From Bdellovibrionota bacterium (lineage in GTDB: Bacteria; Bdellovibrionota_C; UBA2361; OMIW01): 64,000 nt of DNA. Of this stretch, positions 18,225 to 38,862 are shown piece by piece. Location: contig JBIIHQ010000004.1 of the NCBI GenBank assembly GCA_044235645.1, positions 185,562 to 249,561 of the forward strand, in the 5' to 3' direction. Numbering within the stretch: position 1 is the stretch's first letter; each line of letters starts with the position of its first letter. Below the pieces are notes generated by a model, which saw only the letters and a program-made list of their open reading frames with translations, was not told where the DNA came from and searched no databases. A program made the position numbers and the translations under genes.

Positions 18225-19202
18225 TCATCTTATGACCTGAGATGCTATTAGCTTCTCGAGAATTGGTAGCATTAGTCGCTCAAGAACAGAGCTGGGGTCT
18301 TGAGGTCCAGGATGAAACTTCATGCGATGGAGGAGAACGGGACGGTAGAGAGCCTTGAGGTCATCCTCCGTCACATAGTCTCGATCATGAACGACCGCCC
18401 ACGCCTGAGCCGCAGATTGCAGCATCAGTGCGGCTCGGGTTGAGGCACCGAATTGTATCGCAGGAGATGTTCGCGTTGCCTGCACCATACTAATGATGCA
18501 ATGCCGAATCGCCGGCGAAATATGGACTGTTTGTGTCTCACGGCGAGCGGCTAAAATAGCACTACGCGTGACTATGGGACTGAGAGTCTCAAGTTCATGG
18601 TGGATGCTCACAGCATCCCGAAGGATCTCCTCTTCATAGGATGGGGAAACATAGGGCATCGGTATCTTCATGAGGAATCGATCGAGCTGTACGATTGGGA
18701 GAGGATAGGTTCCAGCGATATCAAGAGGGTTTTGCGTGCCAAGGACAAAAAAGAGGTCATCGATGGGGCGAGTGACATTATCGATAGTCACCTGTTTTTC
18801 TGCCATACACTCGAGGAAGGCAGCTTGTACCTTCGGTCCTGTTCTATTTATCTCATCTGCGAGGACGATGTGAGCAAAGATGGGTCCATGCTGAAATCTA
18901 AAGTTTCCGGATTGGGGCTCAAAAACGGTAACGCCGAGGACATCTCCTGGGAGTAGGTCGGGTGTAAACTGGATTCGGCGGAAGGGAAGACAATCTTGAT
19001 TACTCCCTTCATCCGCTGCAATGAGTCGTCCAAGGGTTTTTGCAAGCGTAGTCTTGCCCGAGCCGGGATAGTCCTCAAGAAGGGCATGACCATCGGCTAA
19101 AATAGCTGCGACGACGAGGGCAATTGTGTCATCACGACCCCGAATCACCTTACTGAGTGAGGTTCGTAATGTTGAGGCGACAGTGAAAGCTTCCTGAACC
19201 AT
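18225..19202 (-). CDS. MoxR-family AAA+ ATPase
   Basis: Walker A YPGSGKTTLAKTLG, Walker B ILADEINR and the GTQNP...LDRF MoxR signature. The start was refined to MVQEAF, which has an AGGAG RBS; the ORF is open to 19289. Confidence 0.88.
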   Translation of the reverse strand: MVQEAFTVASTLRTSLSKVIRGRDDTIALVVAAILADGHALLEDYPGSGKTTLAKTLGRLIAADEGSNQDCLPFRRIQFTPDLLPGDVLGVTVFEPQSGNFRFQHGPIFAHIVLADEINRTGPKVQAAFLECMAEKQVTIDNVTRPIDDLFFVLGTQNPLDIAGTYPLPIVQLDRFLMKIPMPYVSPSYEEEILRDAVSIHHELETLSPIVTRSAILAARRETQTVHISPAIRHCIISMVQATRTSPAIQFGASTRAALMLQSAAQAWAVVHDRDYVTEDDLKALYRPVLLHRMKFHPGPQDPSSVLERLMLPILEKLIASQVIR

Positions 19203-19239
19203 GGATTTGGTGCTCCTATGTTCGAAATTTTGGCATCCA

Positions 19240-21252
19240 TTAACCGTTTTTTCGGTCACTCGACAACGAAGCAGAAAAAACCGCCTCATTTAGATTATTT
19301 ACGAGCGCGATTGATGAATTACCACGCGCCGTTAGCCGCCTCGATACTCCAGATGTGGGAGTATACACTAGTGATATTTCTCTGTCCTGACTACCACTTA
19401 CTTGCACCGAAAAAGGACTCTTCATCCCCTTAGCGAGTTCAAAACCACCCTGCTCAAGGGTGCGAATGAGCCCTGTATCAATACCTGAGACTATGACGGG
19501 TAGGGAGATTCCGGCATTGCGCAGAGCCGGGGGAGAGATCACGAAGATTGCTTCCACAAGCTCTATGAACCTAGCGGAGGAGGAGGAATGTCGAGATGCT
19601 AGCAATGTTAAGATATGGAGCCTGAGTCCGTCGTCGTATTTAGCCCGACAACCTCGAAGGGCGTCCTCAAGATTGGCGATTCCCTGGGAAGACGCCCCAT
19701 TTTTTAACTGATTCTCACCAAGGTAGGCGGTGTAGTATACCTGCGCTATGGAGCGTGTATCACGCTTTTGCTCGTCAGATAGTCGTCGCTCAAAAGGAAC
19801 CTTGGGAATGTAAGACAGTACCTCCCCAAATGTGCTGTATTCGATTAAACTGTCGGTATTCCTCACTGTCAGGTCTTCAATATTTCGAAGCCGTTCTGCA
19901 AGGAGTCGAGCTGCCTTCCGATAAAGCCACCAACTAGTCATCTGAGCTCTCAGAATCGTAGCCCTGTCGCGAATCGATTCGAGAATGCTCTCAGCAACAT
20001 GGACTGATAGACGATTGGCTAGTGCTCTCCAGGACTGCGCTTCTGTGATAATAATGCCAATCTCAAGGTCGTCCTGATTTGTCCCGATTTTGCCGAACCA
20101 TTGAATATATTCATAGGCATCGCTTAACCGGGATAACGCTTCGAGAGGTTTTCCGAGATGAAGATCAAATCGCCCCCGAGCAAGGCCGACAAGAGCTCGG
20201 TGCTCTTCATCGCTTCGGAGCGAGTATTGAGCGACACACGACAGGAACGATGAAATCGAATCATTTGCTTCCGTAACCTTGAGTTGTTCTAGGTAGAGGA
20301 GAGCTAGGTTGAGACTGGGCAGGACATGTTCGCAGCCGTCATGATACGACTTCGCTTTGATCCATGATGCCTCGGCTTTATCGTCCTCGAACAATTCCTC
20401 ATAAACCTCCCCCATGTTATTTACTGGCGTCGCAGGTTGTCCCTGTCTCCCGAGACTTGTCTCAATCGCGGAGGCTTTTTTTAATGCTTCGATTGCTGGC
20501 TCGGGTTGACCGTTCATCGAGAGAAGTATCCCGAGCATATTGAGGGTTCGTGCCGGCTCAGCCCGCATGAGAAGTCCAATGCGCGCCTCTCGAATCGCCT
20601 CCTCGAGTCGACCAAGCTTCATCAAGACCCAGGCTCGAGAACCGGCATAGGAAGGGGTGAGATATCCCCGTGATTGGATCTCATCGAGAACGGCAAGCGA
20701 GCCTGAGTAGTCATCGAGATTAAGTCGAGCCTGAGAGAGAAGGTAAAGAATCTGTGCATGTCGGGATTCAATAGCGGGATTAAGATAAGGGGGACTTCCA
20801 TTTTGCTCTCGGAAGAGACGCTCGGCCGCTTTGATATACTTCATTGCCAGGCGAAAGTGTGACACGTGAGCAAGGTAGTAATAGCTCAGACTCACATAAG
20901 CAGGGTAGTAGGAGGGATCCTTCTTTAGGGCGTTCAGCAGCTTTGTGCGTGCCTCGAGAAGGTGGCTATCGTCGGAGAGAAGGGATTCAGCCTCCTCCGT
21001 TAACTCTTCCGCTGTCTCATCGGACGGTGCTATCTCCGAGGGGTCTTCGACGTTGTTACCCCATGGATCGGATACATCAGGCAGAAGGGGTTGTGCGGAC
21101 GATGATGCAAGTAGGCAGACGGTCAGGCCGAGGGGGATCGCCACTACAGCGAGGGATCGATGGAGAGGCGATGGCTCATTTTTTTTAAGGTAGCCGGTCT
21201 GAGAATTTACCCGACTCAGTGAGAGATGTGGAGAAAATTTAACCGGTTTCAT
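19240..21252 (-). CDS. secreted/periplasmic TPR-repeat protein
   Basis: Signal peptide followed by multiple TPR-like repeats. The start ATG overlaps the stop codon of the upstream transglutaminase gene (ATGA), which suggests translational coupling. Confidence 0.65.
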   Translation of the reverse strand: MKPVKFSPHLSLSRVNSQTGYLKKNEPSPLHRSLAVVAIPLGLTVCLLASSSAQPLLPDVSDPWGNNVEDPSEIAPSDETAEELTEEAESLLSDDSHLLEARTKLLNALKKDPSYYPAYVSLSYYYLAHVSHFRLAMKYIKAAERLFREQNGSPPYLNPAIESRHAQILYLLSQARLNLDDYSGSLAVLDEIQSRGYLTPSYAGSRAWVLMKLGRLEEAIREARIGLLMRAEPARTLNMLGILLSMNGQPEPAIEALKKASAIETSLGRQGQPATPVNNMGEVYEELFEDDKAEASWIKAKSYHDGCEHVLPSLNLALLYLEQLKVTEANDSISSFLSCVAQYSLRSDEEHRALVGLARGRFDLHLGKPLEALSRLSDAYEYIQWFGKIGTNQDDLEIGIIITEAQSWRALANRLSVHVAESILESIRDRATILRAQMTSWWLYRKAARLLAERLRNIEDLTVRNTDSLIEYSTFGEVLSYIPKVPFERRLSDEQKRDTRSIAQVYYTAYLGENQLKNGASSQGIANLEDALRGCRAKYDDGLRLHILTLLASRHSSSSARFIELVEAIFVISPPALRNAGISLPVIVSGIDTGLIRTLEQGGFELAKGMKSPFSVQVSGSQDREISLVYTPTSGVSRRLTARGNSSIALVNNLNEAVFSASLSSDRKNG

Positions 21253-23462
21253 GACAGTTCTCCCCTTAGAAAGGCTACAGCGGATCGGAGAGAGCTGAAA
21301 GATCGCCATCGTCTTTTTTTAAGATGAGCCCGGATGACTTCGAGATCTCGGGTTCGTAAGCGATCGATCTCGGATGAGGATAATCTGTAGAGAGTACCCT
21401 GTGGTCCATAAGTTGTCCGAAGGAGAACGGGACGGAGGAGAAAACAGGGGGATCCGAGGATACAGGTGATGCGTTCCTCATATTCGGAGTATGTTTCTCC
21501 CTCGTGCCGGGGAAGGCCCGCATCACGGAGAATGCTGATGACCGCCCGGAACGAGGCCCGCAACCGACCCTGGCAGGAGCGGTAGCCCATCCAACCGAAA
21601 CGAAGGAAAACTTTCACCATGAGGAGAAATACCAAGGACATTGAGAGTCCCCAAAGCACGATCTGGGGAGAAGGCGGGGACCAGCGTGACCTTGTATCCT
21701 CCATTCCGGGCTCGTTTGAAATATCAGAGGGGGCGAGAATTTCCTCGTCTGGTCCGATCATTCCCATCAGCTCTTCAAGCGCTTTTACGTCAACCGGCGA
21801 GTCGGCGTGACTCTCAACTTGTTCGGGTTGAGTATCAAAGGGAACCCAGCCTGCGCCAGTCACGTACACTTCAGCCCACGAGTGACGATCGCTCATACGA
21901 AGAAGGATATGGCCGTCTTTTGACTGGCTAAGATCCGTCATATATCCCGTGGCGATTCGGGAGGGAATGCCTAGGGAACGGAGGAGGTACACAGTGGCAT
22001 GGGCGAAGTGAACACAATAGCCCCGAAGATCTCCGAAGAGGAAAGGCTCGACCGGATCACCCCCCGTCGGAATCTCATGATTTGGTTGGAGGGTATAAAT
22101 TGCGTTTTTTGATAGCCAATCGGCTATGGCAAGTGCTTGAGAAACTTTCCCAGTAACTCCCGCGGTTATTTTCTTTGCAAATTCGGCGTACCTATAGTCA
22201 GGATGGTAAATTGTGTAATGTAATCTCTCATCATCACTCCATCGCGGATCGCCAACATCGCGACTCGCTAGATTCTCAATAGAAAAAGTGGGAGCGAGTG
22301 AGAGTGCCCGATAAGCCGATTTAAAACGATCCGGGCGCGGATTCTTCAGCGGTACCATGCTCGTTGGGTAATCAACCGCGAAAGGGTTTTCAGCCATCGC
22401 GATGAGAAATATTGATTGTGGGAGCTCTATTCTTCCGTCGAGAGAAGTGTCTTTATCCCGGTGAAAGGGCTGGTGAGGAGAGCCACGGAACACATCTTGG
22501 TCGAATTGGGTAGAAGCCATCACCAAGGCGTTATCGGCGAGCTGAGAAAGAGCAGATTCGCGGAGATAAAGCTTTTTTGTGAAGGGATTTTCCGGATAGT
22601 CCCCATCGAGTCGAACGAGTGCCGCCGGTTGAGCTGTTCCTCCAACAGCAGAGTGAAAATTCAAGGGACTAATACCCTCCTGGTTGGCCTGGCCTACACC
22701 GTTTGCTGCTCGAGATCCCACCGATTTTTTCATTGAATGATACAGGCCTTCGCCAAGGCCCCAAAGGGACAGGATAACAATAATCGGGGGAATCAATCGC
22801 GATAATCTTCGAAGTGGAGTTTGCTTGGCAGCAACTGCACTGACCACGTCGGCGCGTCCCAAATTGAGCGAGAGCGCAGTAATGTAGCTGAGGACACCTC
22901 CGAGACATACCGCTGCGATCACGAGAAAGGTGGAAAGATACTCAAGGTTAAGATCCCAAGCTAAAGATGCAATGAACTTCGGCTTGTCGATGTGAAGATT
23001 CCGGTGGGCTGCGAGAAGGCAGACGACTCCTGAGAGAAGGGCGAACAGCTCAGAGGTGACCGCCCAACGATGACGGAAGACGATGACGGAGGACAGGGTC
23101 AGCGCGAGGAATGTCCACGTAGCAAGGGTGGCGTGCTCTGCAATGATGTAGGGTGTTAGTGGTGAGTCGGCCCCAAATGGAGGGAGACGAAGAAACGTTC
23201 CGAGCACAACATGGAAGAGCAAGAGAGCGATGATGGTTACTGTGGCAATGCCACGAGAGGTAACTCGGCAGGGAGTGATTATTACCGCCGAACCGATACC
23301 CATCGCACCTGCAGTAATAAGGAGGTAGGGATAGCTTGCCAGATCGATGAGATTGTCGACGAGAAAAAGAGTCGCTACAAAAAGGAAAAACCGCGCCAGC
23401 GCCGCTATAAAGAGGGCTCGATGTAAGGATACCGATGTTGGGTTGAGTATCTTGAAGGGCAT
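21249..23462 (-). CDS. transglutaminase-like membrane protein (DUF3488-type N-terminal transmembrane domain plus a transglutaminase core)
   Basis: At least six N-terminal transmembrane helices, then the catalytic triad context GYCVHFAHATVYLLRSLGIPSRIATGY...HSWAEVYVTGAGWVPFD. Confidence 0.8.
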   Translation of the reverse strand: MPFKILNPTSVSLHRALFIAALARFFLFVATLFLVDNLIDLASYPYLLITAGAMGIGSAVIITPCRVTSRGIATVTIIALLLFHVVLGTFLRLPPFGADSPLTPYIIAEHATLATWTFLALTLSSVIVFRHRWAVTSELFALLSGVVCLLAAHRNLHIDKPKFIASLAWDLNLEYLSTFLVIAAVCLGGVLSYITALSLNLGRADVVSAVAAKQTPLRRLSRLIPPIIVILSLWGLGEGLYHSMKKSVGSRAANGVGQANQEGISPLNFHSAVGGTAQPAALVRLDGDYPENPFTKKLYLRESALSQLADNALVMASTQFDQDVFRGSPHQPFHRDKDTSLDGRIELPQSIFLIAMAENPFAVDYPTSMVPLKNPRPDRFKSAYRALSLAPTFSIENLASRDVGDPRWSDDERLHYTIYHPDYRYAEFAKKITAGVTGKVSQALAIADWLSKNAIYTLQPNHEIPTGGDPVEPFLFGDLRGYCVHFAHATVYLLRSLGIPSRIATGYMTDLSQSKDGHILLRMSDRHSWAEVYVTGAGWVPFDTQPEQVESHADSPVDVKALEELMGMIGPDEEILAPSDISNEPGMEDTRSRWSPPSPQIVLWGLSMSLVFLLMVKVFLRFGWMGYRSCQGRLRASFRAVISILRDAGLPRHEGETYSEYEERITCILGSPCFLLRPVLLRTTYGPQGTLYRLSSSEIDRLRTRDLEVIRAHLKKRRWRSFSSLRSAVAFLRGELS

Positions 23463-23486
23463 GGGAGACTTGAAAACGAAACAAGA

Positions 23487-24851
23487 CTAAAGCGATCCAC
23501 AAATGACAATGCGTCCACCCAGCCCACTGGCCCGCACTTTCACCGAATGAAGCATCTCTTGGGGATCGGTTGTATCTTCCATATTTGGATTTGGTTTAAG
23601 AAACCACCATACTCCTAGTTTGCGGGGGAGGGGCGTTCTCTCGGAGCGGGAGGTCAAAGTCGCCGCGGGCTCGGCCAGAGCTTCGGGAGTAATGTACCAC
23701 ACGGGTTCTAGTCCATGCGAACCCAGTAATTCGGAAACAACGCTCAAAAGGTCTGCTCTTGACGAGTCAAGCAGGCGGCGGCTGCTAATGAAAAGGGCAA
23801 CCTGGTAAGTCTCCCCGTTTGAGCTGTCTTCGGTCAGCTCGGAGATAAAGTGTTGAAGATCGGGAATAAGTTGTCGGTCAATCGCGTCCCACGTGCTCTC
23901 GAGGATGAGTCGCTCGATATCGGGAATATTTCGTGCCAAATGACGGCCAGTTGTCATGCCGAGACATCCGCATCGGACCTCCATGCCGAGGGACACCGAA
24001 CGAACCAGGTATCTACAACCTGCTGCAGCAACTCTGTCCTCATTTTTCTCGGCAATGATAAACGCAACAGTCTTTCCCTCAGGCTGACTGTGGTGTTCGG
24101 GGTGTCGGGCAACTAATTCTCCCGTCCTCGCAAATATTTTCCAAACTATTCGTCGAATTCCATCCGAGGGGTCGTATCGTTTGAGGTCGAAAAGTTCACC
24201 CTCTGCGGGTGAGTCGGAGGGAGTAACCTCTCCTGAACTTCGCCGAGTTGAGACAATAGGCAGTTCTTGCTCCAAGGAAGGTGGAGGGTAAATGGTAAGC
24301 CGTAGAGGGAGCGCGAGAGGGCACTCCCACCGGATAGAGGTAAGCCCAAGGATGTCCGAGCAGGTTACCCGAAGTTTGGTTACGGACCATTCGCCCCGAT
24401 GAGGAAGAATGACCGGGAAAGGGGCACTAAAAAGGCCACCCCATGCGGAACTCAATTCAGCAACGGGATGCGATATACGTGCTTCGGGCCAGAGAGGCGT
24501 GATGCGGAGTCTGAAAAAAGGAAGACGGGCTCCTAGTCGGGCCGACGCGATGAGGGATATCGAACGACCCGAAACAAAGTAACCATCTGATGTAGGCAGA
24601 GAATCGAGGGAAACCGTGGCGGTGCGTGAGAATCGTGCTCTTGACAAAAAGCCTCCCACCACACAGTAGGTGAGGAGTAGAGAGGCGCCAAATCCGAGGT
24701 ATCGAGCGACAATATCGAACGCTGCAGCTGGTGGTCCTCCCAAAAAATAGGCGGCTACACTGGCGAGGCCCAAGCCCCGTATCGTGACCGGGCTGCGAAC
24801 GTTCAGGCGGTTGAGGAGAGGAGGTGCATGTGGATGTCGGACAGAGGGCAT
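23487..24851 (-). CDS. DUF58 (vWA-like) protein, the usual MoxR partner
   Basis: Two N-terminal transmembrane helices and the DUF58 core motif GELFDLKRYDPSDGIRRIVWKIFARTGELVARHPE. Confidence 0.72.
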   Translation of the reverse strand: MPSVRHPHAPPLLNRLNVRSPVTIRGLGLASVAAYFLGGPPAAAFDIVARYLGFGASLLLTYCVVGGFLSRARFSRTATVSLDSLPTSDGYFVSGRSISLIASARLGARLPFFRLRITPLWPEARISHPVAELSSAWGGLFSAPFPVILPHRGEWSVTKLRVTCSDILGLTSIRWECPLALPLRLTIYPPPSLEQELPIVSTRRSSGEVTPSDSPAEGELFDLKRYDPSDGIRRIVWKIFARTGELVARHPEHHSQPEGKTVAFIIAEKNEDRVAAAGCRYLVRSVSLGMEVRCGCLGMTTGRHLARNIPDIERLILESTWDAIDRQLIPDLQHFISELTEDSSNGETYQVALFISSRRLLDSSRADLLSVVSELLGSHGLEPVWYITPEALAEPAATLTSRSERTPLPRKLGVWWFLKPNPNMEDTTDPQEMLHSVKVRASGLGGRIVICGSL

Positions 24852-24923: not shown

Positions 24924-26894
24924 GTGGTCAGTGAGGTAGGGTTGTGTTGGATATTACACCTTCATTGTTTTTTTGATCCAATAGGTCATGTGAGACAGTA
25001 TTCCGAAACACCCTTCATTCTCCGATTCACATCTCGCTTGGAACAATGTGTTCTCCTCGAAGGCTCAGACGTTTGGCGAATCTCGTCCATATGGGAGGCA
25101 TTTCGGCAGAGAGCCCGTTCGCAACGAGGTGATTGCATAGGGGGCAGAGGAGCGAAAAGCCGGTGTCACACTCCAGTCTCTATCGAGGGCTTCCGGTGGA
25201 TTGTTCCGCTTGATATTCTCGAGTTAGTCGGCTCAGGTCGAACAGTCGGACATCTTTTTGGACTTGAGCAGCTCCTGCTTGAGCTTGTAACCCTCATGGG
25301 TTCTTGGTCGTGTACTGGGTGCGGGGGGATGGTTACGCGGGATACAGCCTCCCAATTAGCGATGAAATTCGCAATGGCCGAGAAGGGAATCGCAGTTTGC
25401 GTGGTTCCGCGGGCGCCAAATGATCCCTGCCTCGAGGAGCTCAGCTCATTTTTCGGTGTTACTCGAGTTTTAATCGGTGATCGTTTAATGCGGAGTGACG
25501 ATCGAAGGGTAATGGGAAAAGATGGTTCAGTTAGCGAAGGGGTGGTAGTTGCCTCTCTTAGTGTGCCGGTGGATATACACGAGGGGGTGCACTGGCTTCG
25601 GGATGTCCGCACTCGATACCCAGGACATCTTGATATCGGGCTGGTCGCGACTGAGGGCACGGACTTTCGAAGGCTCGGGGCATATGGTGAATCAATCCGT
25701 TGTCTTGAGTGTGGAGTGATGTCTCTCGCTCCCACGCTCCGAGAGCTAAGCCAATCGGTCATCAAAGACGCTCAAACCCGATCATCGATTCAGCGGAATT
25801 TTTTCTTGGGTGGACAATCGCTCAAAGAGCTGCTCGCAGGAAAGCTCCGCACAGTGGCTCAAGCCATTCTTGGTATTGCGCAGGAGACGGGAGTTGAGGG
25901 CATTGACTTGGCTTTTTTGGAGAGGATTGTCAAGTTAAACCGACGAATCGGGGAAACTATGCTCGAGAGTCAGATGAGCTCTCTTTGTCCAGCGGATGTG
26001 GTCGACTTAGCCGTTGCTCGAATAGAGTGCGCCGGATTGTCGGGCCTACAGGTTATCGTTAATGAATTAAGCCGACAGGATGTGAGGGAATGGTGGAGGC
26101 GAATTGAGGAGAATGATTCTGCACAGTCAGAGGTGAGCCTTCTTTTTTTGACCCGTACTGATGAGGTCAGAGATTGTTTGGTTACCGAGTGTTCGATCCA
26201 AGATGCTTTTCGAAATAGTGAAGTAATAGCTCCCGAGAGTCAGTGGGGAGTCCCTGAAGGTTGGACGACGATATGTGCGGGCTCAGTTGTCAAAATTCGC
26301 GTTGATGCTGAATCTCACCGAGATTCGGGCGATTTGTCCAAGCGGGTTGAGGTTCTGGTTCGAGCCAAAGGTGTGAGGGGGGCAGTTATTACGTTGTCTC
26401 CTCGAGAGATCGCGGGCCAGAAAGGTCAGGTGGGTGAAGTCTCAGGTGTGTTTCACCATCTGGCTGAATTGGGAGCTCGACTCCCGATTGCTCGAGCGCA
26501 AGGTATCTCGACTCGGCAGATAAGTGAGGGATTTCAGGGGTATCGAACCCTTCCGCCATTTTTTGGTCTGTCAACCCACGAGTTGAGGAGGATTCCGCTG
26601 GAGCAACTAGTTCTTCGAGTGCCGAGGGTGGGGTATGCTCACGAATTACTTCGAGCCATAATTGCAGCGGGGGGGGGCGGAGTTTCGCTATCGGAGGATG
26701 TATCAACGCATCCCGCCGGTCTTCGAATCATTTACGGATTGTGTGGCGAAATACCTCTTAAGAAGAGGTGTTTGGTCGTCGCTCGGGTCCGCTGGCTCCT
26801 ATGTAAGTCGCAGGAGGATGTTTTAGATGCCATGCTGCAGGAAGAATTACTGAGAGCCGGTTCATGCCCCACCGTTGTGTGGCTGGATCGATGA
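24924..26894 (+). CDS. large hypothetical protein (656 aa) with CxxC pairs and no recognisable domain
   Basis: Long ORF on the same strand as the downstream pssA and separated from it by 13 nt. It contains the Cys pairs CTGCGG and CLEC. The N-terminal ~90 aa are of doubtful coding quality. Confidence 0.45.
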   Translation: MVSEVGLCWILHLHCFFDPIGHVRQYSETPFILRFTSRLEQCVLLEGSDVWRISSIWEAFRQRARSQRGDCIGGRGAKSRCHTPVSIEGFRWIVPLDILELVGSGRTVGHLFGLEQLLLELVTLMGSWSCTGCGGMVTRDTASQLAMKFAMAEKGIAVCVVPRAPNDPCLEELSSFFGVTRVLIGDRLMRSDDRRVMGKDGSVSEGVVVASLSVPVDIHEGVHWLRDVRTRYPGHLDIGLVATEGTDFRRLGAYGESIRCLECGVMSLAPTLRELSQSVIKDAQTRSSIQRNFFLGGQSLKELLAGKLRTVAQAILGIAQETGVEGIDLAFLERIVKLNRRIGETMLESQMSSLCPADVVDLAVARIECAGLSGLQVIVNELSRQDVREWWRRIEENDSAQSEVSLLFLTRTDEVRDCLVTECSIQDAFRNSEVIAPESQWGVPEGWTTICAGSVVKIRVDAESHRDSGDLSKRVEVLVRAKGVRGAVITLSPREIAGQKGQVGEVSGVFHHLAELGARLPIARAQGISTRQISEGFQGYRTLPPFFGLSTHELRRIPLEQLVLRVPRVGYAHELLRAIIAAGGGGVSLSEDVSTHPAGLRIIYGLCGEIPLKKRCLVVARVRWLLCKSQEDVLDAMLQEELLRAGSCPTVVWLDR

Positions 26895-26991
26895 TTGAGA
26901 GGAGTGAGTGGTGAAAAGGGGACCTGTATTTCCGCTTAAATTGAGGTCGATTGTGCCAGAGTTTGCGGAAGTTGAGAGTGGGAGTATCGGA

Positions 26992-27798
26992 ATGAAAAAA
27001 TTATCTCCGCAAGAGAGAGATGCGCGTAGGGAACGGCTGCGGGGGCGGATTGTTCGGAGTCGTTTTTTGGTACCGAATGCGGTGACCGTTGGTAATATGT
27101 TCTGTGGCTTTCTTTCTATTGTCCACAGCTCTTCAGGACGATTCAAGGAGGCGGCGCTGGCGGTGCTCTTCGCCATACTCCTTGATGGGCTTGATGGTCG
27201 GGTTGCGCGCCGGCTTAACGCGACTTCTCCCTTTGGGGTCGAGTTTGATTCTTTCAGTGATCTTGTTTCCTTTGGCTTGGCACCAGGACTGTTGGTTTAC
27301 AACTGGTGCTTCAAAATGCAAGCCGACGAGGTTGGGGTCTTGGTGGCATTCCTTTATGCGGTATGTGCAGCAGGAAGGCTTGCTAGGTTTAATGTAGCAC
27401 CTCCGACATTGCGTGCATTCGTCGGTTTGCCATCACCGGGAGCAGCAGCAGCCATGGCGTCGATGGTATACGCGATACCGGAGCCTGTGATGAGCTCATT
27501 TGCGGTTGGATTAGTCGCGCTTATCACCCTTGTTCTTGGGGTCTTAATGGTTGCTTCGATTCCCTACACGAGCATAAAGATGCTCAAATTGAGTCATTTA
27601 CATCTCCCGGAGGTCGTGGCGATAGCCGCTTTCATCGCGCTTTTGTGGTATAGCGCTCGCATAGGGTTGCTCGTAGTAAGTTTTGGATATGCCTCATCAG
27701 GGGTCGTCCTATGGACTGTGGGGCGTCAACAACGGGAGCGAAGCGATGGTGGCGAATCTACGAGCTGTGTCTGCCCGCCTGAAGAGATTGAGAAATAG
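26992..27798 (+). CDS. pssA: CDP-diacylglycerol--serine O-phosphatidyltransferase (CDP-alcohol phosphatidyltransferase family)
   Basis: Motif DGLDGRVAR...G...EFDSFSD matches D-x2-DG-x2-AR...G-x3-D-x3-D. The start at MKKLSPQ was chosen by alignment; the ORF is open to 26908. Confidence 0.8.
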   Translation: MKKLSPQERDARRERLRGRIVRSRFLVPNAVTVGNMFCGFLSIVHSSSGRFKEAALAVLFAILLDGLDGRVARRLNATSPFGVEFDSFSDLVSFGLAPGLLVYNWCFKMQADEVGVLVAFLYAVCAAGRLARFNVAPPTLRAFVGLPSPGAAAAMASMVYAIPEPVMSSFAVGLVALITLVLGVLMVASIPYTSIKMLKLSHLHLPEVVAIAAFIALLWYSARIGLLVVSFGYASSGVVLWTVGRQQRERSDGGESTSCVCPPEEIEK

Positions 27799-28036
27799 AT
27801 ATTCCATGGTCAGCGAGCAGCAACGGTATTCCACCCCTCACGAGATATCCAACGGCTCCATCCTCCCGTACGAGGATATCTTCGAACTCTGACGGCGACC
27901 CTTTCCCAGTGACTGTTTGCAACAATCCATTCTCAGCCATATCCTTTAAGCGGGCTACCGTGCACACATCCGCTCGTTTCAGAGGCTGTCGGGATTCTGG
28001 GCACACAAGAAGGGTTAGAATTTCATTGGTGATCAT
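27758..28036 (-). CDS. Trm112-family small protein (UPF0434/YcaR-like zinc-ribbon-like)
   Basis: ILTLLVCPESRQPL...DGAVGYLVRGGIPLLL matches the Trm112 fold signature. It overlaps both neighbouring genes by a few codons. Confidence 0.55.
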   Translation of the reverse strand: MITNEILTLLVCPESRQPLKRADVCTVARLKDMAENGLLQTVTGKGSPSEFEDILVREDGAVGYLVRGGIPLLLADHGISISQSLQAGRHSS

Positions 28037-30113
28037 GGTTTTCAGTCTCCACGGGCTCCTCGTTGTCCGTAGTATAGGCATTAACGAGGGCAGAGTGGAA
28101 CCCTGGGAGCCGGGGGGATGGTTGTTCCCAGCTAATCACGCATAGCTCATCCTGTGCTCGAGTCGCTGCCACGTAGAGAAGATTAGCCGAAAGGGGTGAG
28201 TCGGGGAGCCTCTTTTTACTAGGATTCCAGAGGGCAACGGATGAGAACTCCAGCCCCTTCGCAAGTGATATGTCACTCACAAGGATTCCCTCGTCGAGGG
28301 TAAAGGCGCTTGGGTCGGCTAATTCGAGCAAATTACCGAAAGTAGGTTTCAGGAGAGATGCGGCTATTCTCGCCTCCTCCCGCGATGCACAGAGCACTGA
28401 ACAGAGTGTACCCGGATGTACCTGCAATGCGTGGGTGAGCCACTGAATCATCTGAGCGTGCCCAATTTCCTCCCGCTTGCATCGAACCCAGAGGGGACGA
28501 GGTCCAGTGCGACCTTCTGCGGGAAGCTCATCGCCACGGCATGCAGCCGCGAACTGCATGATGGGCAGGGTGCATCGGTATGGAACCGTCAGGTGTATCA
28601 GAGATACCTCAGGTTCGTTTGGTTTACGAAGGACCTCGCGAACAAATGACCAGCCGGGCAGGGAGTCCGGACGCTCGGTTTGTTGTGCTGAATCTCCTAC
28701 GAGGGTAAGCCCTCGGGAATTTTTTGCGGCGAGCGCGATGCATGACAGCTCAACCCCATTTAAATCCTGTACTTCATCAGCAATGATGGCATCATAACGA
28801 ATCGGCTCGAAGGGTAAATCTTTTCCGATGCGGAGTGCCTCAAGTTGAATCCAGAGGGCTAGCATGAGGTCGTGCCGATCGAAATCGTCGGCTTGAACGG
28901 AAGAGTAGTAATCGATTGATTCCCCGATACCGTCCATGTGCGGAGATGGCTTTCTTGAGCCTTTGTGGTGTGGATTCCAATCTGAGGAGAGGGCAGCTAT
29001 CAAGAGAGAACGAATACTTTCAAGGAAACCTTTGCTGAGGGAGCCGATTTTTTCTCCTGGATAATCATCTAAAAATTTATGATCGCGGATCAGAGGTTCC
29101 AATTGTCTGAGAAGGGTAACACTCGTTCTCACAGCTACGCTTGCAGCGGAGCCGTTCACGGCGGTCGTGGCACGAGATTCTCCGCCAACATTAAGAGTTT
29201 TAGAGGTCCATTCTGGTAGTGTGTAAACCGTCACGCCCGGTATAGATAGTTTTTCGAGAGAATTCCTGATGTAGCTTCTCAGTAGCGGATTGAGTACGAC
29301 GATCGCACTTCTGTCGGGAGAAATTTCTTCTCGACACTCGCTGAACAGCCAGGCTGCCCTATGGAGAGCTACGGTGGTCTTTCCAGACCCCGCCACCCCT
29401 TGAATGAGGACAGGAGATTGTGCATCTCGAGTTATTGCATCGAATTGGGCCGCTGAGATAAAAGACAGGACATCAGGGAGGCTCGAAGATGCAGAGAATG
29501 GTGCAGATGACCTGACAGCCGGATCGCCCGCCTTGCGCCAGCCGTCGTCTGTTAATACCAAAGCACCTTGTGAATGGGTTATTCTCCGCAGTATTCCGTG
29601 TTCAATTTCGACCTGACGTCTCAAGATCACGGTACCGTAGCGATCCGTGCCCTGAATTTCCTCTGCGAACTCATCCCCCTCTTTGTAATGGTAGTACAAC
29701 TTCGAAAGAGGAGCCTTTTTCCAATCGACGATACGACAGTCGCCGTTCGGGTGGTGCCCTACCTTGAATTCTCGCTCGACGGGTCCTGTATCGGATTCCT
29801 CTCGGATTACAAGCCGTGCAAAATAAGGCCTATTGAGAAGGGCATGGAGCCGCTCGACCTCTTCCTCGCTCCGTTCCTTCAGCGTGTGCGAAAGCCGTTC
29901 CTGATCCCCGAGTGAAGCCTTTTCCTCGAACCTTCGGGATGCGACTAGTTCATGAGTAAGCCTTCGAGCCCGATTCGTCTCCACAGTGAGTCGCCGCGTT
30001 TGATCGGCCTCTTGGAGTTGGAGACCGATGATTACCGTTCGGAGAACGGCCTCCTCTTCGGCAACAATCGCGAGTTCCTCGGGAGTTAAAAAGGATTTCA
30101 TACAGCCAGGCAA
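28023..30113 (-). CDS. UvrD-family helicase, HelD-like (helicase IV type)
   Basis: Walker A GVAGSGKTTVALHRAAWL, the HelD-like N-terminal region KVGHHPNGDCRIVDWKKAPLSKLYY, and a helicase C-terminal part (LYVAATRAQDEL). Confidence 0.78.
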   Translation of the reverse strand: MPGCMKSFLTPEELAIVAEEEAVLRTVIIGLQLQEADQTRRLTVETNRARRLTHELVASRRFEEKASLGDQERLSHTLKERSEEEVERLHALLNRPYFARLVIREESDTGPVEREFKVGHHPNGDCRIVDWKKAPLSKLYYHYKEGDEFAEEIQGTDRYGTVILRRQVEIEHGILRRITHSQGALVLTDDGWRKAGDPAVRSSAPFSASSSLPDVLSFISAAQFDAITRDAQSPVLIQGVAGSGKTTVALHRAAWLFSECREEISPDRSAIVVLNPLLRSYIRNSLEKLSIPGVTVYTLPEWTSKTLNVGGESRATTAVNGSAASVAVRTSVTLLRQLEPLIRDHKFLDDYPGEKIGSLSKGFLESIRSLLIAALSSDWNPHHKGSRKPSPHMDGIGESIDYYSSVQADDFDRHDLMLALWIQLEALRIGKDLPFEPIRYDAIIADEVQDLNGVELSCIALAAKNSRGLTLVGDSAQQTERPDSLPGWSFVREVLRKPNEPEVSLIHLTVPYRCTLPIMQFAAACRGDELPAEGRTGPRPLWVRCKREEIGHAQMIQWLTHALQVHPGTLCSVLCASREEARIAASLLKPTFGNLLELADPSAFTLDEGILVSDISLAKGLEFSSVALWNPSKKRLPDSPLSANLLYVAATRAQDELCVISWEQPSPRLPGFHSALVNAYTTDNEEPVETENHDHQ

Positions 30114-30462
30114 AAACTACACTGCAAAAAACTTCAAAAAAATAAACGCAGTTCTAAGATATGCAGGGGTTCGGCTAATCGAAGAGAAAACTTAAGGGTC
30201 GTGTGCGCAAAAGGGTATTTTTTGTTTTGACCGGTGCCGCTGGGTCGAGGCGAAATTTGGGTGTAGAGACATGGCCATATCTTGCTTCGGCGGAGCTGTT
30301 CATATAAAAGGGTAGTGTTTCAGGCCACTCAGTGCGGCGAGAGAGCCGTACCGAGGTGATGATGGCTCTGGGGGGGCGGATTTTCTGGGGCGTCCCCACT
30401 TGGGATGCAAGTTCTGGGATGCTCCTAGGGTGGACATCCGGCGGAGAAGGCAAAGGGGGGGA

Positions 30463-31080
30463 TACATGGGTTCTCAGTCGGGGTGGGCGAACAAAAATTC
30501 GCCGGAAGAGGTGCAGGTGGCGATGGTCGCCCTTAAGCACGATGGGGCCCCCTTGGTGAAAAGGTCGAGGGTTCGGCTCGGGGACCTCGAAGTGTGGTGT
30601 GAACGAGTTCACCAGCGTAGATTTTTGGAGGAGCTGAAATCACATCCGACTTATCGCTTCGATATGTTCGTCTCGGTAACGGTTGTTGATTGGATGGACC
30701 GTGCGGAAGAGCGTTTTGAGGTCGTTTATCACCTTTTGTCTCTCTCCACGAATGCTCGACTAAGATTGAGGGTTTGGGCACCAGAGGGCGATCCAGTTGT
30801 CGACTCGGTATCGGACCTGTGGCCAGGTGCTGACTTCATGGAAAGAGAGGCTTGGGATATGTACGGCGTAGTGTTCCGGGGACATCCTAACCTTCGTCGA
30901 ATCCTCATGTACGATGAGTTTAAGGGGTATCCCCTACGGAAAGATTATCCCGTCCAAGGCAAGCAACCGCGCATTCCCCTCCGGGCTCCGGAGGTTCGCA
31001 ATACGGCGGTCGATATGAAGCGACCCGAGCTGGTAGCAATTAATCCTCGCCGAAAGTGGACGGAATCGGCAAATCGATAG
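30463..31080 (+). CDS. nuoC: NADH-quinone oxidoreductase subunit C (30 kDa)
   Basis: DLWPGADFMEREAWDMYGVVFRGHPNLRRILMYDEFKGYPLRKDYP. The start is uncertain (30463 or 30523); the ORF is open from 30400. Confidence 0.85.
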   Translation, partial: YMGSQSGWANKNSPEEVQVAMVALKHDGAPLVKRSRVRLGDLEVWCERVHQRRFLEELKSHPTYRFDMFVSVTVVDWMDRAEERFEVVYHLLSLSTNARLRLRVWAPEGDPVVDSVSDLWPGADFMEREAWDMYGVVFRGHPNLRRILMYDEFKGYPLRKDYPVQGKQPRIPLRAPEVRNTAVDMKRPELVAINPRRKWTESANR

Positions 31081-31165
31081 ATTTACCATGGAGAGAAGGT
31101 TCTGGTCGCAGCCCTTCCCCAGGACTGAGATATTCCCCGCAGACGATTCCCCGAAAGAGATACCT

Positions 31166-32413
31166 ATGAGCGATCTTCTGAATGTTGATTACGGAGCAGG
31201 AGGGGTAACCACCCATATGCGACCCCGACCACTCGGGGATGACCTCCACTCCGAAACGATGATTCTCAACATGGGGCCGGCCCATCCGGCAACTCATGGC
31301 ACGGTTAGGTTGGTCGTCGAACTTGAGCATGAAAAGATTATCGATGCAGATGTTGAGGTCGGCTACCTGCACCGCGGTTTCGAAAAGATGTGTGAAACCG
31401 TCGATTATAACCAGGTAATGCCGTATGCCGATCGGCTCAATTACGTTTCGCCGATCATCAACAACGTAGGATGGTGTCTCACTATAGAAAAATTAATTGG
31501 TATCGAGGTGCCGAAGAGGTGTCAGTATGTCCGGGTGGTGATGTCCGAAATATCGCGGATCTCCGACCATTTGACTTGCCTTGGAGCATCGGCGATGGAG
31601 CTTGGTGCCTTTACCGTGATGCTGTACCTCATGCAGGCTCGTGAGGCTTTGTGGGAGCTTGTTGAAGAGGTTACCGGTGCTCGGTTGACGATTTCATATG
31701 GGCGAGTAGGAGGTCTTAAGTCTGATCTGCCGGATGGATTTGCAACTCGAATGGCAGCGGCGTTTAAGCAGGTCAGATTCCAGATGGAGCAAAGTGATAA
31801 GCTCTTGAGTCGAAATCGGATCTTCATTGACCGCATGTGCGACGTGGCGGTGCTCTCGGCTGATGAGGCGATAGCCTACTCGATTACAGGTCCTCTGCTT
31901 CGTGCCTCGGGAGTTTCGTATGATGTGAGAAAGGCATTTCCATACTCATCCTACGAGGATTTTGATTTTGAGGTCCCGGTGGGCACGAAGGGTGACAATT
32001 ACGATCGATTTCAGGTTCGGATGGCGGAGGTGGAGCAGTCGATGCGTATCTGTGAGCAAGCGATGGCTCGTTTGCCAGAGGGGCCGATATCAGTCGATAA
32101 TCCGAGAATCGTGCTTGCCCCGAAGGATGAAGTATATGGATCTATCGAGGGTATGATTAGCCATTTTGAGTTGGTCATCAAGGGTATTGAACCTCCAGAA
32201 GGTGACGTCTACCAGATGGTCGAAGGGGGGAATGGAGAGCTCGGATTCTTTGTGGTCTCTGACGGAACTGGAAGACCCTATCGAGTTCATGTGAGAGCGC
32301 CGAGTTTCATCCATATGGGTGCAATGAAGAAGATGCTCGTCGGCCAGTCGGTGGCGGATATTGTGCCCACTTTTGGCATGATAAATATGATTGGAGGGGA
32401 GTGCGATAGGTAG
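31166..32413 (+). CDS. nuoD: NADH-quinone oxidoreductase subunit D (49 kDa)
   Basis: ETMILNMGPAHPATHGTVRL...GYLHRGFEK and the C-terminal region VRAPSFIHMGAM. The start at MSDLL was chosen by alignment; the ORF is open from 31088. Confidence 0.9.
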   Translation: MSDLLNVDYGAGGVTTHMRPRPLGDDLHSETMILNMGPAHPATHGTVRLVVELEHEKIIDADVEVGYLHRGFEKMCETVDYNQVMPYADRLNYVSPIINNVGWCLTIEKLIGIEVPKRCQYVRVVMSEISRISDHLTCLGASAMELGAFTVMLYLMQAREALWELVEEVTGARLTISYGRVGGLKSDLPDGFATRMAAAFKQVRFQMEQSDKLLSRNRIFIDRMCDVAVLSADEAIAYSITGPLLRASGVSYDVRKAFPYSSYEDFDFEVPVGTKGDNYDRFQVRMAEVEQSMRICEQAMARLPEGPISVDNPRIVLAPKDEVYGSIEGMISHFELVIKGIEPPEGDVYQMVEGGNGELGFFVVSDGTGRPYRVHVRAPSFIHMGAMKKMLVGQSVADIVPTFGMINMIGGECDR

Positions 32414-32516
32414 AGGAAGCGGGATAGCGCTGAACTTTTTTCGTATAAGTGAGGTTTTTCCTGAGAAGCAAGGAAAGATGCCTCGAAGAGATTTTAAGCA
32501 TAGGTAATGGGACTGT

Positions 32517-33074
32517 ATGGATGTCGATTTGCCAGCCGATTTTGAGGCAAAATTAGTCGAGGTAAAGAAGCAGTACCCGCAATCCCGTTCGGCTATCATG
32601 CCAGCGCTGTACCTAGCTCAGCAGCATTTCGGCCACATATCGCAAGAGGCGGTGCGGTGGGTCTCCTCTCGGCTGGATATTCCTCCGGTTCATGTAATGG
32701 AGGTGGCATCGTTCTATACGATGTACTACAAAAAGCCGATCGGCCGGTACCATGTTCAGGTTTGTCGTACTCTTTCGTGCGCGGTCAGGGGAGCTCCCGA
32801 ATTGACGTCGTGTGTAAAGAGACGATTTGGCACCAAAGCTCACGAGCCGACCTCCGATGGGCAGTGGAGTTTCGAGGAGGTTGAGTGCCTCGGATCGTGT
32901 GGTACGGCTCCGATGGTCCAGATAAATGATTTTTATTTTGAAAATCTTGACCCTGAAAAGCTGGAAGCATTGCTTGATCGAATTGAGAAGGAACAGCCCG
33001 ATCTTCGTTTGTCTTCAGTAACCGATGCCATGTCAGGGGGACTGCCCGGTTGTCCAAAGTCGGAGGTAATATGA
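32517..33074 (+). CDS. nuoE: NADH-quinone oxidoreductase subunit E (24 kDa, 2Fe-2S)
   Basis: CRTLSCAVRG...ECLGSCGTAPMVQIND, the thioredoxin-like 2Fe-2S ligand pattern. Confidence 0.88.
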   Translation: MDVDLPADFEAKLVEVKKQYPQSRSAIMPALYLAQQHFGHISQEAVRWVSSRLDIPPVHVMEVASFYTMYYKKPIGRYHVQVCRTLSCAVRGAPELTSCVKRRFGTKAHEPTSDGQWSFEEVECLGSCGTAPMVQINDFYFENLDPEKLEALLDRIEKEQPDLRLSSVTDAMSGGLPGCPKSEVI

Positions 33075-34795
33075 CAGTGACTCCTTCCGATATCTCAGCG
33101 AATCCTACGTCTGGGCAAGGTGGACTCGCCTCGGAGGAATCGCCGGTTGTGACGCAATGTGGTGTGCCTGAAAGCGATTTGGTCACGGTCACGATCGATG
33201 GTTCTCAAGTCCGGGTTCGAAAAGGAACCAATATCATTGAGGCTGCCCGATTACTGGGCAAGGAAATTCCTCATTATTGCTATCATCCCGACCTCTCAAT
33301 AGCTGGCAACTGTCGGATGTGCCAGATTCAGGTGAAGGGGGTGCCTCGGCTGTCGATCGGGTGTAATACCAGTGCAACAGAAGGAATGGAGGTCACGACC
33401 CAGGCCACCGATTCGGGGGTCGTGGATGGCCAGGCCTCAGTCCTCGAGTTTATCTTGGCGAACCATCCCCTGGATTGTACTGTCTGCGATCAAGCAGGTC
33501 ATTGTAAGTTACAGGACTATCACTACGAATATAACGGTCGTCCCAGCCGATTTCTCGAAGATAAAGTCCACAAGGTTAAGGCGGAACCTCTCGGACCGAC
33601 GGTCATGCTGGATGGTGAGCGATGCATCATGTGCTCGCGATGTGTACGGTTCTGTGATGAGATAACGGGGACTTCAGAAATCGGGCTCCTCAATCGGGGA
33701 GATCGCACCGTTATTGCAGTTAGTCCTGACCGACCGCTTGACAATCCACTCTCGGGGACCGTGGTGGATCTTTGTCCGGTCGGTGCGCTGACTCATCGGG
33801 AGTGGCGTTTCAACTCTCGGATATGGTTTTCCAAGCAGACTGATGCAATTTGTCCCGGATGTTCAACGGGGTGCAATGTTCGGGTGGCCGTTCGGGACGC
33901 ACACGAGGTCGTTCAGGTCAAGGCTCGTTATAATCAGGCCGTGAATAAGGAATGGCTCTGTGATGAGGGCCGGTACGGGTTTGGGCGATTTCTCCCTCGA
34001 GATAGGCTTACATCACCATCAGTAGGGGGAAAGTCGGTAACGTTATCTGAGGCGCTCCGAGCTCTTCCCAAGTCTTCCGAAGATGAGGTAGCAATATTTG
34101 TTGCGCCCGACCTCATCCTTGAGGAGTACATTATCCTTCGTCGCTTTATCCAGGCGCGGATGCCTCGCGCTTTTGTCGCTCTGGCATTTCGAGAGCGGGA
34201 ACTAACTTCAGTTGAGAAGATTCTTATCAGCCCTGATTATGCGGCCAACTTCAGGGGAGTGCAAATTGGGCAGCTTTTTCGTCGTGAAGAGGGAGGCGAA
34301 GCGGCTGGAGATGGCTCGCTGGGAGAGAAGTTCTTGGGGGATCGATATGAGATGGCGCTTCGCAAACTTCGGGGCGGAGTGTTTTCCCGAGTGTTCTTCA
34401 TCGGAGAGCGCGCGATAGCAGGTAATGATCTTGATGCCGAGATATTATCTGCGGTACGGGCATGTCAAACATCGCTATTCATTGGCACGGATGAGACGAA
34501 TCCTTTGGTTTCAGCGGTCTCTGTGGTAATCCCGGGGCGCAGTATCCTCGAAAAAAGTGGCTTGGTCGTTAACCGCGCCTACCACCTCCAGTACACCGAG
34601 CGGGTGGTTGAGCTACCTGAGGGAACCATGCCTGAATGGAGAGTGCTCAATGAATGGGCTACGATCTCAGGGGGTGCATTGGTTGCTTCTCAAAACGATC
34701 GGGAGCTTACATTGGAGATTCTGTCCTCAGAGGAGCGGCTCAAGGGCTTGCGCCTAAAAGATATCAAGGCTGGTGGGGTTTCACTCGCGACTTAG
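33050..34795 (+). CDS. nuoG: NADH-quinone oxidoreductase subunit G (75 kDa), short form
   Basis: N-terminal 2Fe-2S ferredoxin-like region, the N5 cluster motif HPLDCTVCDQAGHC and the 4Fe-4S motif CIMCSRCVRFC. At 581 aa it lacks much of the long molybdopterin-like C-terminus. Confidence 0.85.
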   Translation: MSKVGGNMTVTPSDISANPTSGQGGLASEESPVVTQCGVPESDLVTVTIDGSQVRVRKGTNIIEAARLLGKEIPHYCYHPDLSIAGNCRMCQIQVKGVPRLSIGCNTSATEGMEVTTQATDSGVVDGQASVLEFILANHPLDCTVCDQAGHCKLQDYHYEYNGRPSRFLEDKVHKVKAEPLGPTVMLDGERCIMCSRCVRFCDEITGTSEIGLLNRGDRTVIAVSPDRPLDNPLSGTVVDLCPVGALTHREWRFNSRIWFSKQTDAICPGCSTGCNVRVAVRDAHEVVQVKARYNQAVNKEWLCDEGRYGFGRFLPRDRLTSPSVGGKSVTLSEALRALPKSSEDEVAIFVAPDLILEEYIILRRFIQARMPRAFVALAFRERELTSVEKILISPDYAANFRGVQIGQLFRREEGGEAAGDGSLGEKFLGDRYEMALRKLRGGVFSRVFFIGERAIAGNDLDAEILSAVRACQTSLFIGTDETNPLVSAVSVVIPGRSILEKSGLVVNRAYHLQYTERVVELPEGTMPEWRVLNEWATISGGALVASQNDRELTLEILSSEERLKGLRLKDIKAGGVSLAT

Positions 34796-34882
34796 GCTCT
34801 AGGTAAGCATTGAAACTGAGGGCATGAAAAGGGCGAATGTAACCAGTAACGAATTAGGCCGAGGGCGCAAAAAGAGGAATGT

Positions 34883-35974: not shown

Positions 35975-36046
35975 TTGAGGAGTTCTTCCCTTCAAAGGGC
36001 TCTTAAAGGCTCGGAAATTTCCATACAGGGTATCGGGAGATAGTAG

Positions 36047-36553
36047 ATGATGTCGGTAACGATAGCGATTTTATCCGTGTGTATGCTGACCACAGCGGTC
36101 TCCGTTGTTGCGGCGAAAAGCCCGATTGTGAGCGCACTCGCCCTTGTTGGTAATCTTATAACGGTAGCTGCATTGTATGCGGCGATGAATGCACATTTTC
36201 TTGCGGCTGTTCAGATACTCGTGTACGCCGGCGCAATAGTCGTTCTCGTTCTTTTTGTCCTGATGTTGCTGAATATAAAGGGCGAGGCGGGAAGAAGAAG
36301 TGATTTTATCCTGCGGGTGGCGGCTTCGATCATCGCGGGGTTTTTTCTGCTTACAGTGCTTCCTCTCTGGGATGAATGGCTTGGTTTAGACAACCTCTCA
36401 GCACCAGAGGGAACGGTACGAGCGATAGGAAAGCTCGTTTACACGGACTATGTATACTGTTTCGAGGTCGCCTCAATTCTAATTCTCATTGCAGTTGTCG
36501 GAGCGGTAACGCTAGGACGACGCGCTCGAATTCCGAATATCGCGAGCGAATAG
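36047..36553 (+). CDS. nuoJ: NADH-quinone oxidoreductase subunit J
   Basis: ND6-like N-terminal helices (AAVQILVYAGAIVVLVLFVLMLL). It comes immediately after nuoH, with no nuoI between them. Confidence 0.85.
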   Translation: MMSVTIAILSVCMLTTAVSVVAAKSPIVSALALVGNLITVAALYAAMNAHFLAAVQILVYAGAIVVLVLFVLMLLNIKGEAGRRSDFILRVAASIIAGFFLLTVLPLWDEWLGLDNLSAPEGTVRAIGKLVYTDYVYCFEVASILILIAVVGAVTLGRRARIPNIASE

Positions 36554-36599
36554 AGGGGATTAAAGAGAACTCGGGGGCCCTTAGATTAAAGGAATCGTC

Positions 36600-36902: not shown

Positions 36903-36905
36903 CGT

Positions 36906-38810: not shown

Positions 38811-38862
38811 GTTCTCTCTTTTTTACAGAATCGCAACACAAGAACGGCGGAAAGGCGGAGAG

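Follow-up and report, generated by a model that had tools for sequence, protein, structure and literature searches.

What kind of protein is encoded directly upstream of the phosphatidylserine synthase gene pssA in a 64,000-nt stretch of DNA from a Bdellovibrionota bacterium (GenBank assembly GCA_044235645.1, contig JBIIHQ010000004.1, positions 185,562 to 249,561, forward strand)? The whole stretch is called the window below, and all coordinates refer to it. The initial annotation had described a long and clean open reading frame (ORF) of 656 codons in which no domain was recognized, with two CxxC pairs and with pssA following on the same strand. We propose that this gene is a lineage-restricted and highly divergent derivative of uvrA, whose product is now a pseudo-ATPase with a binding or scaffold role, and we consider this reading as a whole fairly probable. 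The two genes are as follows.

24924..26894, plus strand: putative UvrA-like pseudo-ATPase gene, the longest ORF, 656 codons with a GTG start
26908..27798, plus strand: pssA (CDP-diacylglycerol--serine O-phosphatidyltransferase), TIGR00473 score 138 bits (cutoff 107), CDP-OH_P_transf E=2e-19

An ORF of 656 codons at 52% GC is far above chance expectation, and the frame at 24924..26894 was found intact when it was compared with related sequences. A word-indexed protein search recovered a 99% identical copy (P0001) and an 80% identical orthologue (P0002), the latter from "Proteobacteria bacterium AM_0729" (GCA_900299205.1). Only these two close orthologues were returned by this method, even with a five-sequence alignment as the query, and the distant members needed an exhaustive HMMER search over 1.84 billion representatives. 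That search yielded three distant clusters (P0003, P0004, and P0005) with identities of 32–36% and E-values of 1e-99 to 1e-112, and gave no additional clusters beyond them. Two extra loci (L008 and L009) came from a metagenome scan with tblastn. At 50% identity, the family amounts to only four clusters among the 1.8 billion representatives, each of them metagenome-derived, and every database copy is labelled "hypothetical protein". It is rare and limited to one group of uncultured bacteria.

Between the window ORF and the 80% orthologue there were no indels across 656 codons, and the substitutions at codon positions 1, 2, and 3 numbered 72, 68, and 152, respectively. The ratio of non-synonymous to synonymous substitution rates (dN/dS, or omega) was 0.33 for the whole gene and 0.05–0.20 over the last 170 codons. 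Approximately 100 alignment columns were invariant in all members, which represent five lineages with identities down to 32%. The gene is clearly real and under purifying selection. The initial annotation had stated that its reading would be refuted if the ORF were confined to one strain or were a disrupted pseudogene; homologues exist in other lineages down to 32% identity, and no frameshifted copies were seen.

Relationship to UvrA

Searches with the single window sequence gave no match in Pfam, NCBIfam, PADLOC, or PDB sequences, so the earlier statement that no domain could be recognized is borne out at this level. The description as an orphan without a recognizable fold did not hold, since Foldseek and hhalign identify the protein as a remote UvrA derivative. 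A structure model was built with AlphaFold2 from the five-sequence family alignment without templates. Its mean predicted local distance difference test score (pLDDT) was 59, with values of 66–87 across most of aa 100–370 and 500–600. An AlphaFold-based fold search had been proposed in the initial annotation, and when the model was compared with the PDB by Foldseek, the top 38 matches were all UvrA, the best being 9gy7_A with E=4.4e-16. The overall template modelling (TM) scores to UvrA were 0.2–0.27. When the C-terminal 257 aa were modelled separately (pLDDT 54), the top 36 PDB matches were UvrA (best E=3.9e-4), followed by generic ATP-binding cassette (ABC) domains; the full model was more confident over these residues than this C-terminal-only model. 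At the fold level, the two tandem ABC nucleotide-binding domains (NBDs) that characterize UvrA are present.

The profile comparisons pointed to the same protein. In a PDB profile search, UvrA 3pih_A came first (E=0.062), on the stretch aa 86–209. The family was also aligned by hhalign with a profile built from eight UvrAs of class I, which were taken from plasmid or mis-labelled chromosome records. The stretch aa 86–209 was aligned with residues 75–204 of E. coli UvrA (EcUvrA) with Prob 83% and E=8.5e-6, and this alignment superposes the IEGxxxxxxxD, (R)(S)TVG, following helix, and CxxCG of UvrA. Against the single E. coli UvrA sequence, the hhalign result was insignificant (Prob 4%). The C-terminal part, aa 492–656, was aligned with EcUvrA 690–900 at a score of 25.5, compared to 13.4 ± 1.9 for column-shuffled profiles (0 of 40 shuffles reached the score), and this alignment begins at the motif ATYTGVF..IR.LFA. 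The middle part gave a weak collinear alignment to EcUvrA 399–515, with a score of 18.7 compared to 13.6 ± 2.2 after shuffling (1 of 40 shuffles reached it). The curated UvrA models (NCBIfam uvrA and Pfam UvrA_inter, UvrA_DNA-bind, and ABC_tran) matched neither the window protein nor P0003–P0005, even at Pfam E<=10. That the gene product is a UvrA derivative can be held with high confidence, and the protein is mapped onto UvrA as follows.

25053..25127, plus strand: conserved N-terminal block (aa 44–68, ..SDxWxxSSIW..), at the position of the UvrA NBD-I Walker A, no P-loop
25179..25550, plus strand: UvrA-similar stretch by hhalign (aa 86–209), IEGxxxxxxxD, TVG, helix, and CxxCG plus the first half of the UvrB-binding-type domain
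25311..25322, plus strand: first CxxC knuckle CTGC (aa 130–133), invariant, aligned with E. coli UvrA C120/H123 (Zn1)
25323..25700, plus strand: alpha/beta domain resembling the UvrB-binding domain (aa 134–259), between the two CxxC knuckles
25701..25712, plus strand: second CxxC knuckle CLEC (aa 260–263), exactly 130 residues past the first in 6/6 members
25713..26165, plus strand: remnant that covers signature domain I plus the C-terminal half of NBD-I (aa 264–414), weak hhalign
26166..26279, plus strand: variable linker (aa 415–452), poorly conserved, indels between lineages, pLDDT <50
26280..26891, plus strand: C-terminal module resembling NBD-II and signature domain II (aa 453–656), the best-conserved part
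26709..26726, plus strand: family motif H-P-x-G-L-R (aa 596–601), with H, G, L, and R in 6/6 members and P in 5/6

The CxxC pairs noticed earlier, CTGC at aa 130–133 and CLEC at aa 260–263, were confirmed. Rather than redox-type motifs, they form the pair of knuckles of a UvrA-type zinc module that brackets the UvrB-binding-type domain. As in UvrA, a UvrB-binding-type domain was found within signature domain I, flanked by zinc module 1. Alignments of the second CxxC to the Zn1 and to the Zn2 halves were both at noise level. The isolated UvrB-/Mfd (TRCF)-interaction domain of UvrA (3fpn_A, 4dfc) was matched with TM-scores of 0.55–0.59, normalized to the target, at an identity of about 16%. The UvrA-invariant residues D205, R206, R216, and E222 are apparently not kept in the family, as judged from a by-eye extension past the significant alignment.

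In the remnant at aa 264–414, a degenerate signature (SLCPAD) and Walker-B-like positions (QVIVNELS) can be located, and the pLDDT was 66–86 at aa 290–370. The dN/dS was 0.36–0.77 over aa 401–480 and decreased to 0.05–0.20 in the C-terminal module, which terminates just past the strand that bears the H-loop in ABC ATPases. The modelled order of helix 598–609, strand 617–620, helix 628–644, and strand 651–654 is that of the ABC signature helix, Walker B strand, helix, and H-loop strand. In this model, the H-P-x-G-L-R motif would lie at the start of the helix that follows LSGGE(AQR) in UvrA NBD-II, and a non-acidic strand appears at the expected position of the NBD-II Walker B. A shifted alternative for the mapping of the C-terminal motif was given by hhalign, and no catalytic motif was found under either mapping.

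Loss of the ATPase and DNA-sensing parts

Walker A, GK[ST], [LFYV]SGG, and hhhhD[DE] patterns were absent from all six family members by regular-expression search, while each of the 8 control UvrAs carried the Walker A and the Walker B motif twice and the signature motif two or more times. Exactly two CxxC pairs were found per family member, compared to 4–5 in UvrA, where they form Zn1, Zn2, and Zn3. The insertion domain and Zn2 had no counterpart, there being no further CxxC pairs in the family, and past the second knuckle a weak borderline alignment resumes at about EcUvrA 404–550, which skips the insertion domain of approximately 120 residues. The Zn3 hairpin is also missing: the UvrA stretch C740..C766 is mostly gap in the family in the hhalign alignment of aa 492–656, and no Cys pairs occur there. 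In UvrA, DNA contact and damage sensing are assigned to the insertion domain together with the Zn3 hairpin (review PMC7835731). The set of P-loop, Q-loop, signature, Walker B, and H-loop that marks a generic ABC ATPase was not found in the family. At the position of the H-loop histidine, structure-guided mapping would place R or H in the NBD-I remnant and D or E in the NBD-II remnant. It is very likely that the family is ATPase-dead.

Two candidates for a surviving Walker A were considered and set aside. GSGRT (aa 103–107) was rejected, as hhalign pairs it with the RSTVG of UvrA, residues 95–99. SSDPWVLSSIW as the Walker A of NBD-I was unsupported, its profile score of 6.9 being below the shuffled mean of 8.7, and the equivalence is positional only.

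The family is best compared with class I UvrA (E. coli; PDB 2r6f, 3pih, 3zqj, 3uwx, and 9gy7), which is its top structural and profile match. Like class I UvrA, it shows the entry IEGxxPxxxIDQ, STVG, helix, and CxxCG into signature domain I, a UvrB-binding-type domain of about 126 residues between Cys knuckles, the signature-I/Walker-B-I region, the linker, and the signature-II/NBD-II module. In M. tuberculosis UvrA, the UvrB-binding domain comprises residues 129–255 and sits on a stem with Zn1 and Zn2 (PMC3167621). Unlike class I UvrA, the family proteins are approximately 300 residues shorter, carry no ATP-site motifs, insertion domain, Zn2, or Zn3, and end past the H-loop strand, and their gene lies next to pssA and not next to ssb or nucleotide excision repair (NER) genes. 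Class II UvrAs (D. radiodurans UvrA2, 2vf7; Ecm16, 7sh1; DrrC), which are also among the structural matches, share with the family an origin from UvrA with domain loss and a role thought to lie outside canonical NER. Class II proteins have lost the UvrB-binding domain and kept the ATPase sites, the insertion domain, and Zn3 (PMC3167621; PMC9328131), and Ecm16 is reported to depend on its ATPase activity (PMC9328131). The pseudo-UvrA family is the reverse, as it keeps the UvrB-binding-type domain and has lost the rest. Literature searches turned up no report of a UvrA that is ATPase-dead or half-size. We describe the family as a degenerate UvrA variant and not as a UvrA member in the functional sense. 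Its composition is also unusual, with an Arg:Lys ratio of about 4:1 and with 11–20 Cys and 7–13 Trp per protein (window 24990–26894, P0002–P0005, and L009:5983–7902); canonical UvrAs have 10–14 Cys and 1–7 Trp per 940 residues. Charge and pI gave no further clue.

In the explanation that we favor, the retained UvrA chassis would consist of the remnants of both NBDs, one four-cysteine zinc module, and the UvrB-binding-type alpha/beta domain. Both Walker A loops, both LSGGE signatures, both Walker B motifs, the Zn3 hairpin, and the insertion domain together with Zn2 have been discarded, and it is through these that UvrA binds ATP and senses damaged DNA. With the ATP-binding and damage-sensing parts lost, the protein most likely works without nucleotide hydrolysis. 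It would be a zinc-stabilized binding or scaffold protein for which the ATP-driven damage-sensing cycle of UvrA is presumably not possible. The UvrB-binding-type domain and the conserved C-terminal helical module may contact a partner; the best-conserved surfaces would be this helical module (omega 0.05–0.2) and the zinc stem that carries the docking-type domain. By analogy with the ancestral domain, which is bound by a UvrB/Mfd-type module, such a module is one candidate partner, and PssA may be another.

Coupling to pssA and rival explanations

The gene pssA begins 13 nt past the stop codon of the pseudo-UvrA gene, on the same strand, as the initial annotation had noted. That annotation had also suggested looking for conservation of this order in related genomes, and in each of the five lineages (the window, L001/L002/L003, L004, L005, L006, and L009) the gene adjoins pssA head-to-tail on the same strand. 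The gap was 13–16 nt in the window and its orthologue and 80 nt in L004, and the genes as called overlap by 4 nt in L005 and by 29–53 nt in L009 and L006, values that vary with the chosen pssA start. No terminator-like site was found in the junction between the two genes. The pseudo-UvrA gene is presumably co-transcribed with pssA, and the protein would then be made from the same transcript as PssA. The conserved coupling suggests co-expression and possibly a functional link, as far as gene order can tell. Downstream of pssA, the window and L001 carry a HelD-like helicase gene and the nuo operon, and L006 and L009 carry genes for a short-chain dehydrogenase/reductase, an amine oxidase, DUF1365, and a cyclopropane-fatty-acid synthase. 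No NER genes were found within the 64-kb window.

Several points weigh against the reading as a UvrA-derived pseudo-ATPase with a binding role. The models are of moderate confidence (mean pLDDT 59 and 54) and poor at aa 1–96 and 372–493, because the alignment holds 5–6 sequences only. By hhalign, no similarity to UvrA could be detected in the N-terminal 63 residues, and significance at the sequence level is confined to aa 86–209 and the C-terminal module. The absence of canonical motifs is no proof against nucleotide binding, and membership of an operon can be incidental. The gene is also the least constrained in its block: its omega of 0.33 is at the top of the neighborhood, where the other genes have values of 0.02–0.21, and since it rises to about 0.7–0.9 at aa 241–320, 361–400, and 441–480, parts of the protein are weakly constrained.

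This weak constraint, together with the loss of all catalytic motifs, is what a decaying relic of a uvrA duplicate would show, without a function of its own and held open by chance or by constraints from neighboring expression signals. However, the frame is intact in five lineages at 32% identity, the invariant residues include the four Zn-ligand cysteines and HPxGLR, and omega is 0.05–0.2 across the C-terminal 170 residues, so that we hold a relic to be most unlikely. The shallow alignment, the low pLDDT, and the low global TM-scores might instead mean that the resemblance to UvrA is a modelling artefact and that the protein is an unrelated zinc-ribbon protein with a new fold. This is very unlikely in our view, as the two independently built models were template-free and retrieve UvrA exclusively, the hhalign match falls on the most characteristic UvrA motifs and is joined by a shuffle-controlled C-terminal match, and the domain order is collinear with UvrA. 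If the relationship is accepted, the protein might be a fast-evolving orthologue that serves as the functional UvrA of the lineage, with ATP-dependent damage recognition in NER, since UvrA is the sole significant structural and profile match and a UvrB-binding-type domain is kept. Against this stand the Walker A, signature, and Walker B motifs, present in 0/6 family members versus 8/8 controls as described above, the loss of the Zn3 hairpin and insertion domain with which UvrA contacts DNA and senses damage (PMC7835731), the shorter length by about 300 residues, and the lack of any match to curated UvrA models, and a working UvrA is therefore most improbable.

A class II UvrA-like resistance protein of the DrrC, Ecm16, or UvrA2 type, which shields DNA from intercalating natural products, would be expected to lack the UvrB-binding domain and to have active ATPase sites. 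The family shows neither feature and is the reverse of that class as described in PMC3167621 (domain loss) and PMC9328131 (ATPase requirement of Ecm16). No biosynthetic cluster was found nearby, the neighbors being MoxR/transglutaminase genes, pssA, the HelD-like helicase gene, and nuo, and this explanation is scarcely credible. The protein could also be dedicated to PssA, as its accessory subunit or its regulator, and act in phospholipid synthesis at the membrane, its UvrA ancestry being irrelevant to its present function. The gene order is strict, the reading frames overlap or nearly abut in 5/5 lineages, and the downstream genes in L006 and L009 are also lipid-related. But this argument comes from synteny alone, no membrane-binding or lipid-related feature was identified in the protein, and the divergent MoxR/transglutaminase operon is likewise common to the five lineages, so the whole block may be the inherited gene order of one clade. 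To our knowledge, the CDP-alcohol-type PssA enzymes have no partner requirement. A dedicated PssA partner is a possible explanation, though an unlikely one.

Translation start, neighboring genes, and significance

The initial annotation had also suspected that the N-terminal 90 or so amino acids are not translated. This was in part supported for the first 6–22 codons and contradicted for aa 44–90. The GTG at 24924 of the window is GTA in the 80% orthologue (L001). Relative to that orthologue, codons 1–22 showed 1 synonymous and 4 non-synonymous changes, compared to 2 and 0 in codons 23–34. The TTG at 24942 and the GTG at 24990 are the sole in-frame start codons common to both orthologues. The tblastn similarity to L008 and L009 starts at residue 23, the distant homologues have 13–29 residues ahead of the first conserved block, and gene callers on other records gave 650-aa and 634-aa versions. 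Because the GTG at 24924 is not kept and codons 1–22 changed mostly non-synonymously, the true start is probably one of these two codons.

24942..24992, plus strand: region of the probable true start, either TTG at 24942 (codon 7, after gtgaggt) or GTG at 24990 (codon 23), both kept in the orthologue

Conservation is seen from residue 44 on at 32% identity, with W51, S54, S55, I56, and W57 invariant, and aa 44–90, conserved in homologues of this distance, are therefore translated. The segment 24852–24990, which comprises the intergenic region between the divergent operons and the 5' region, is 82–94% identical to the locus of the 80% orthologue, like coding DNA. It contains a T7 run and the stretch ccaataggtcatgtgagacag, and may hold common promoter or leader elements.

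On the other side of this segment, the minus-strand operon at 18225–24851 encodes a MoxR-type AAA_3 ATPase, a tetratricopeptide repeat protein, a transglutaminase-core membrane protein, and a weakly DUF58-like protein. It is divergent from the pseudo-UvrA/pssA pair, and the head-to-head layout was found in 5/5 lineages (including L001, L004, L005, L006, and L009). An unannotated ORF of 381 aa at 16875–18020 may be part of this operon. Beyond pssA, the minus-strand gene at 28023–30113 encodes a UvrD-family helicase with its best match to HelD, the RNA-polymerase recycling motor (NF041464, E=2e-38, under the curated cutoff), and beside it lies a 107-aa ORF without a family match at 27758–28081 (minus strand). 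Both converge on pssA, and they are present in the window and the 80% orthologue but not beside the gene in the distant lineages.

Pfam matches in the complex I (nuo) cluster at 30400–42062 cover NuoC, D, E, G, H, J, L, M, and N. NuoF is absent between nuoE (32517–33074) and the overlapping nuoG (33050–34795), and there is no space for NuoI between nuoH and nuoJ. The order C-D-E-G-H is also found in L001. At 43821–46217 on the minus strand, a 798-aa fusion protein is encoded in which a membrane domain like that of nitrate reductase gamma is joined to 4Fe-4S ferredoxin domains and to two cysteine-rich CCG (HdrD-like) domains.

UvrA is among the best-studied bacterial repair proteins, and its known class II paralogues all retain working ATPase sites. 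The case is a concrete one of a "hypothetical protein" that was missed by sequence models and resolved via structure prediction, and its reach is limited to a rare, metagenome-only family. A conserved relative that lacks both ATP sites and every damage-sensing element, with the zinc stem and the UvrB/Mfd-docking domain retained, would be a natural "separation-of-function" UvrA. It would reveal what in the chassis can fold and work nucleotide-free, and it would suggest a role of the docking domain beyond excision repair. More specifically, the protein might be the first UvrA-derived pseudoenzyme, an ATP-independent adaptor of this freshwater lineage that sequesters or redirects a UvrB/Mfd-type partner or works with the apparently translationally coupled PssA, a speculative and decidedly unlikely proposal. 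If such an adaptor were true, membrane phospholipid synthesis would be tied to a chromosome- or transcription-associated partner.

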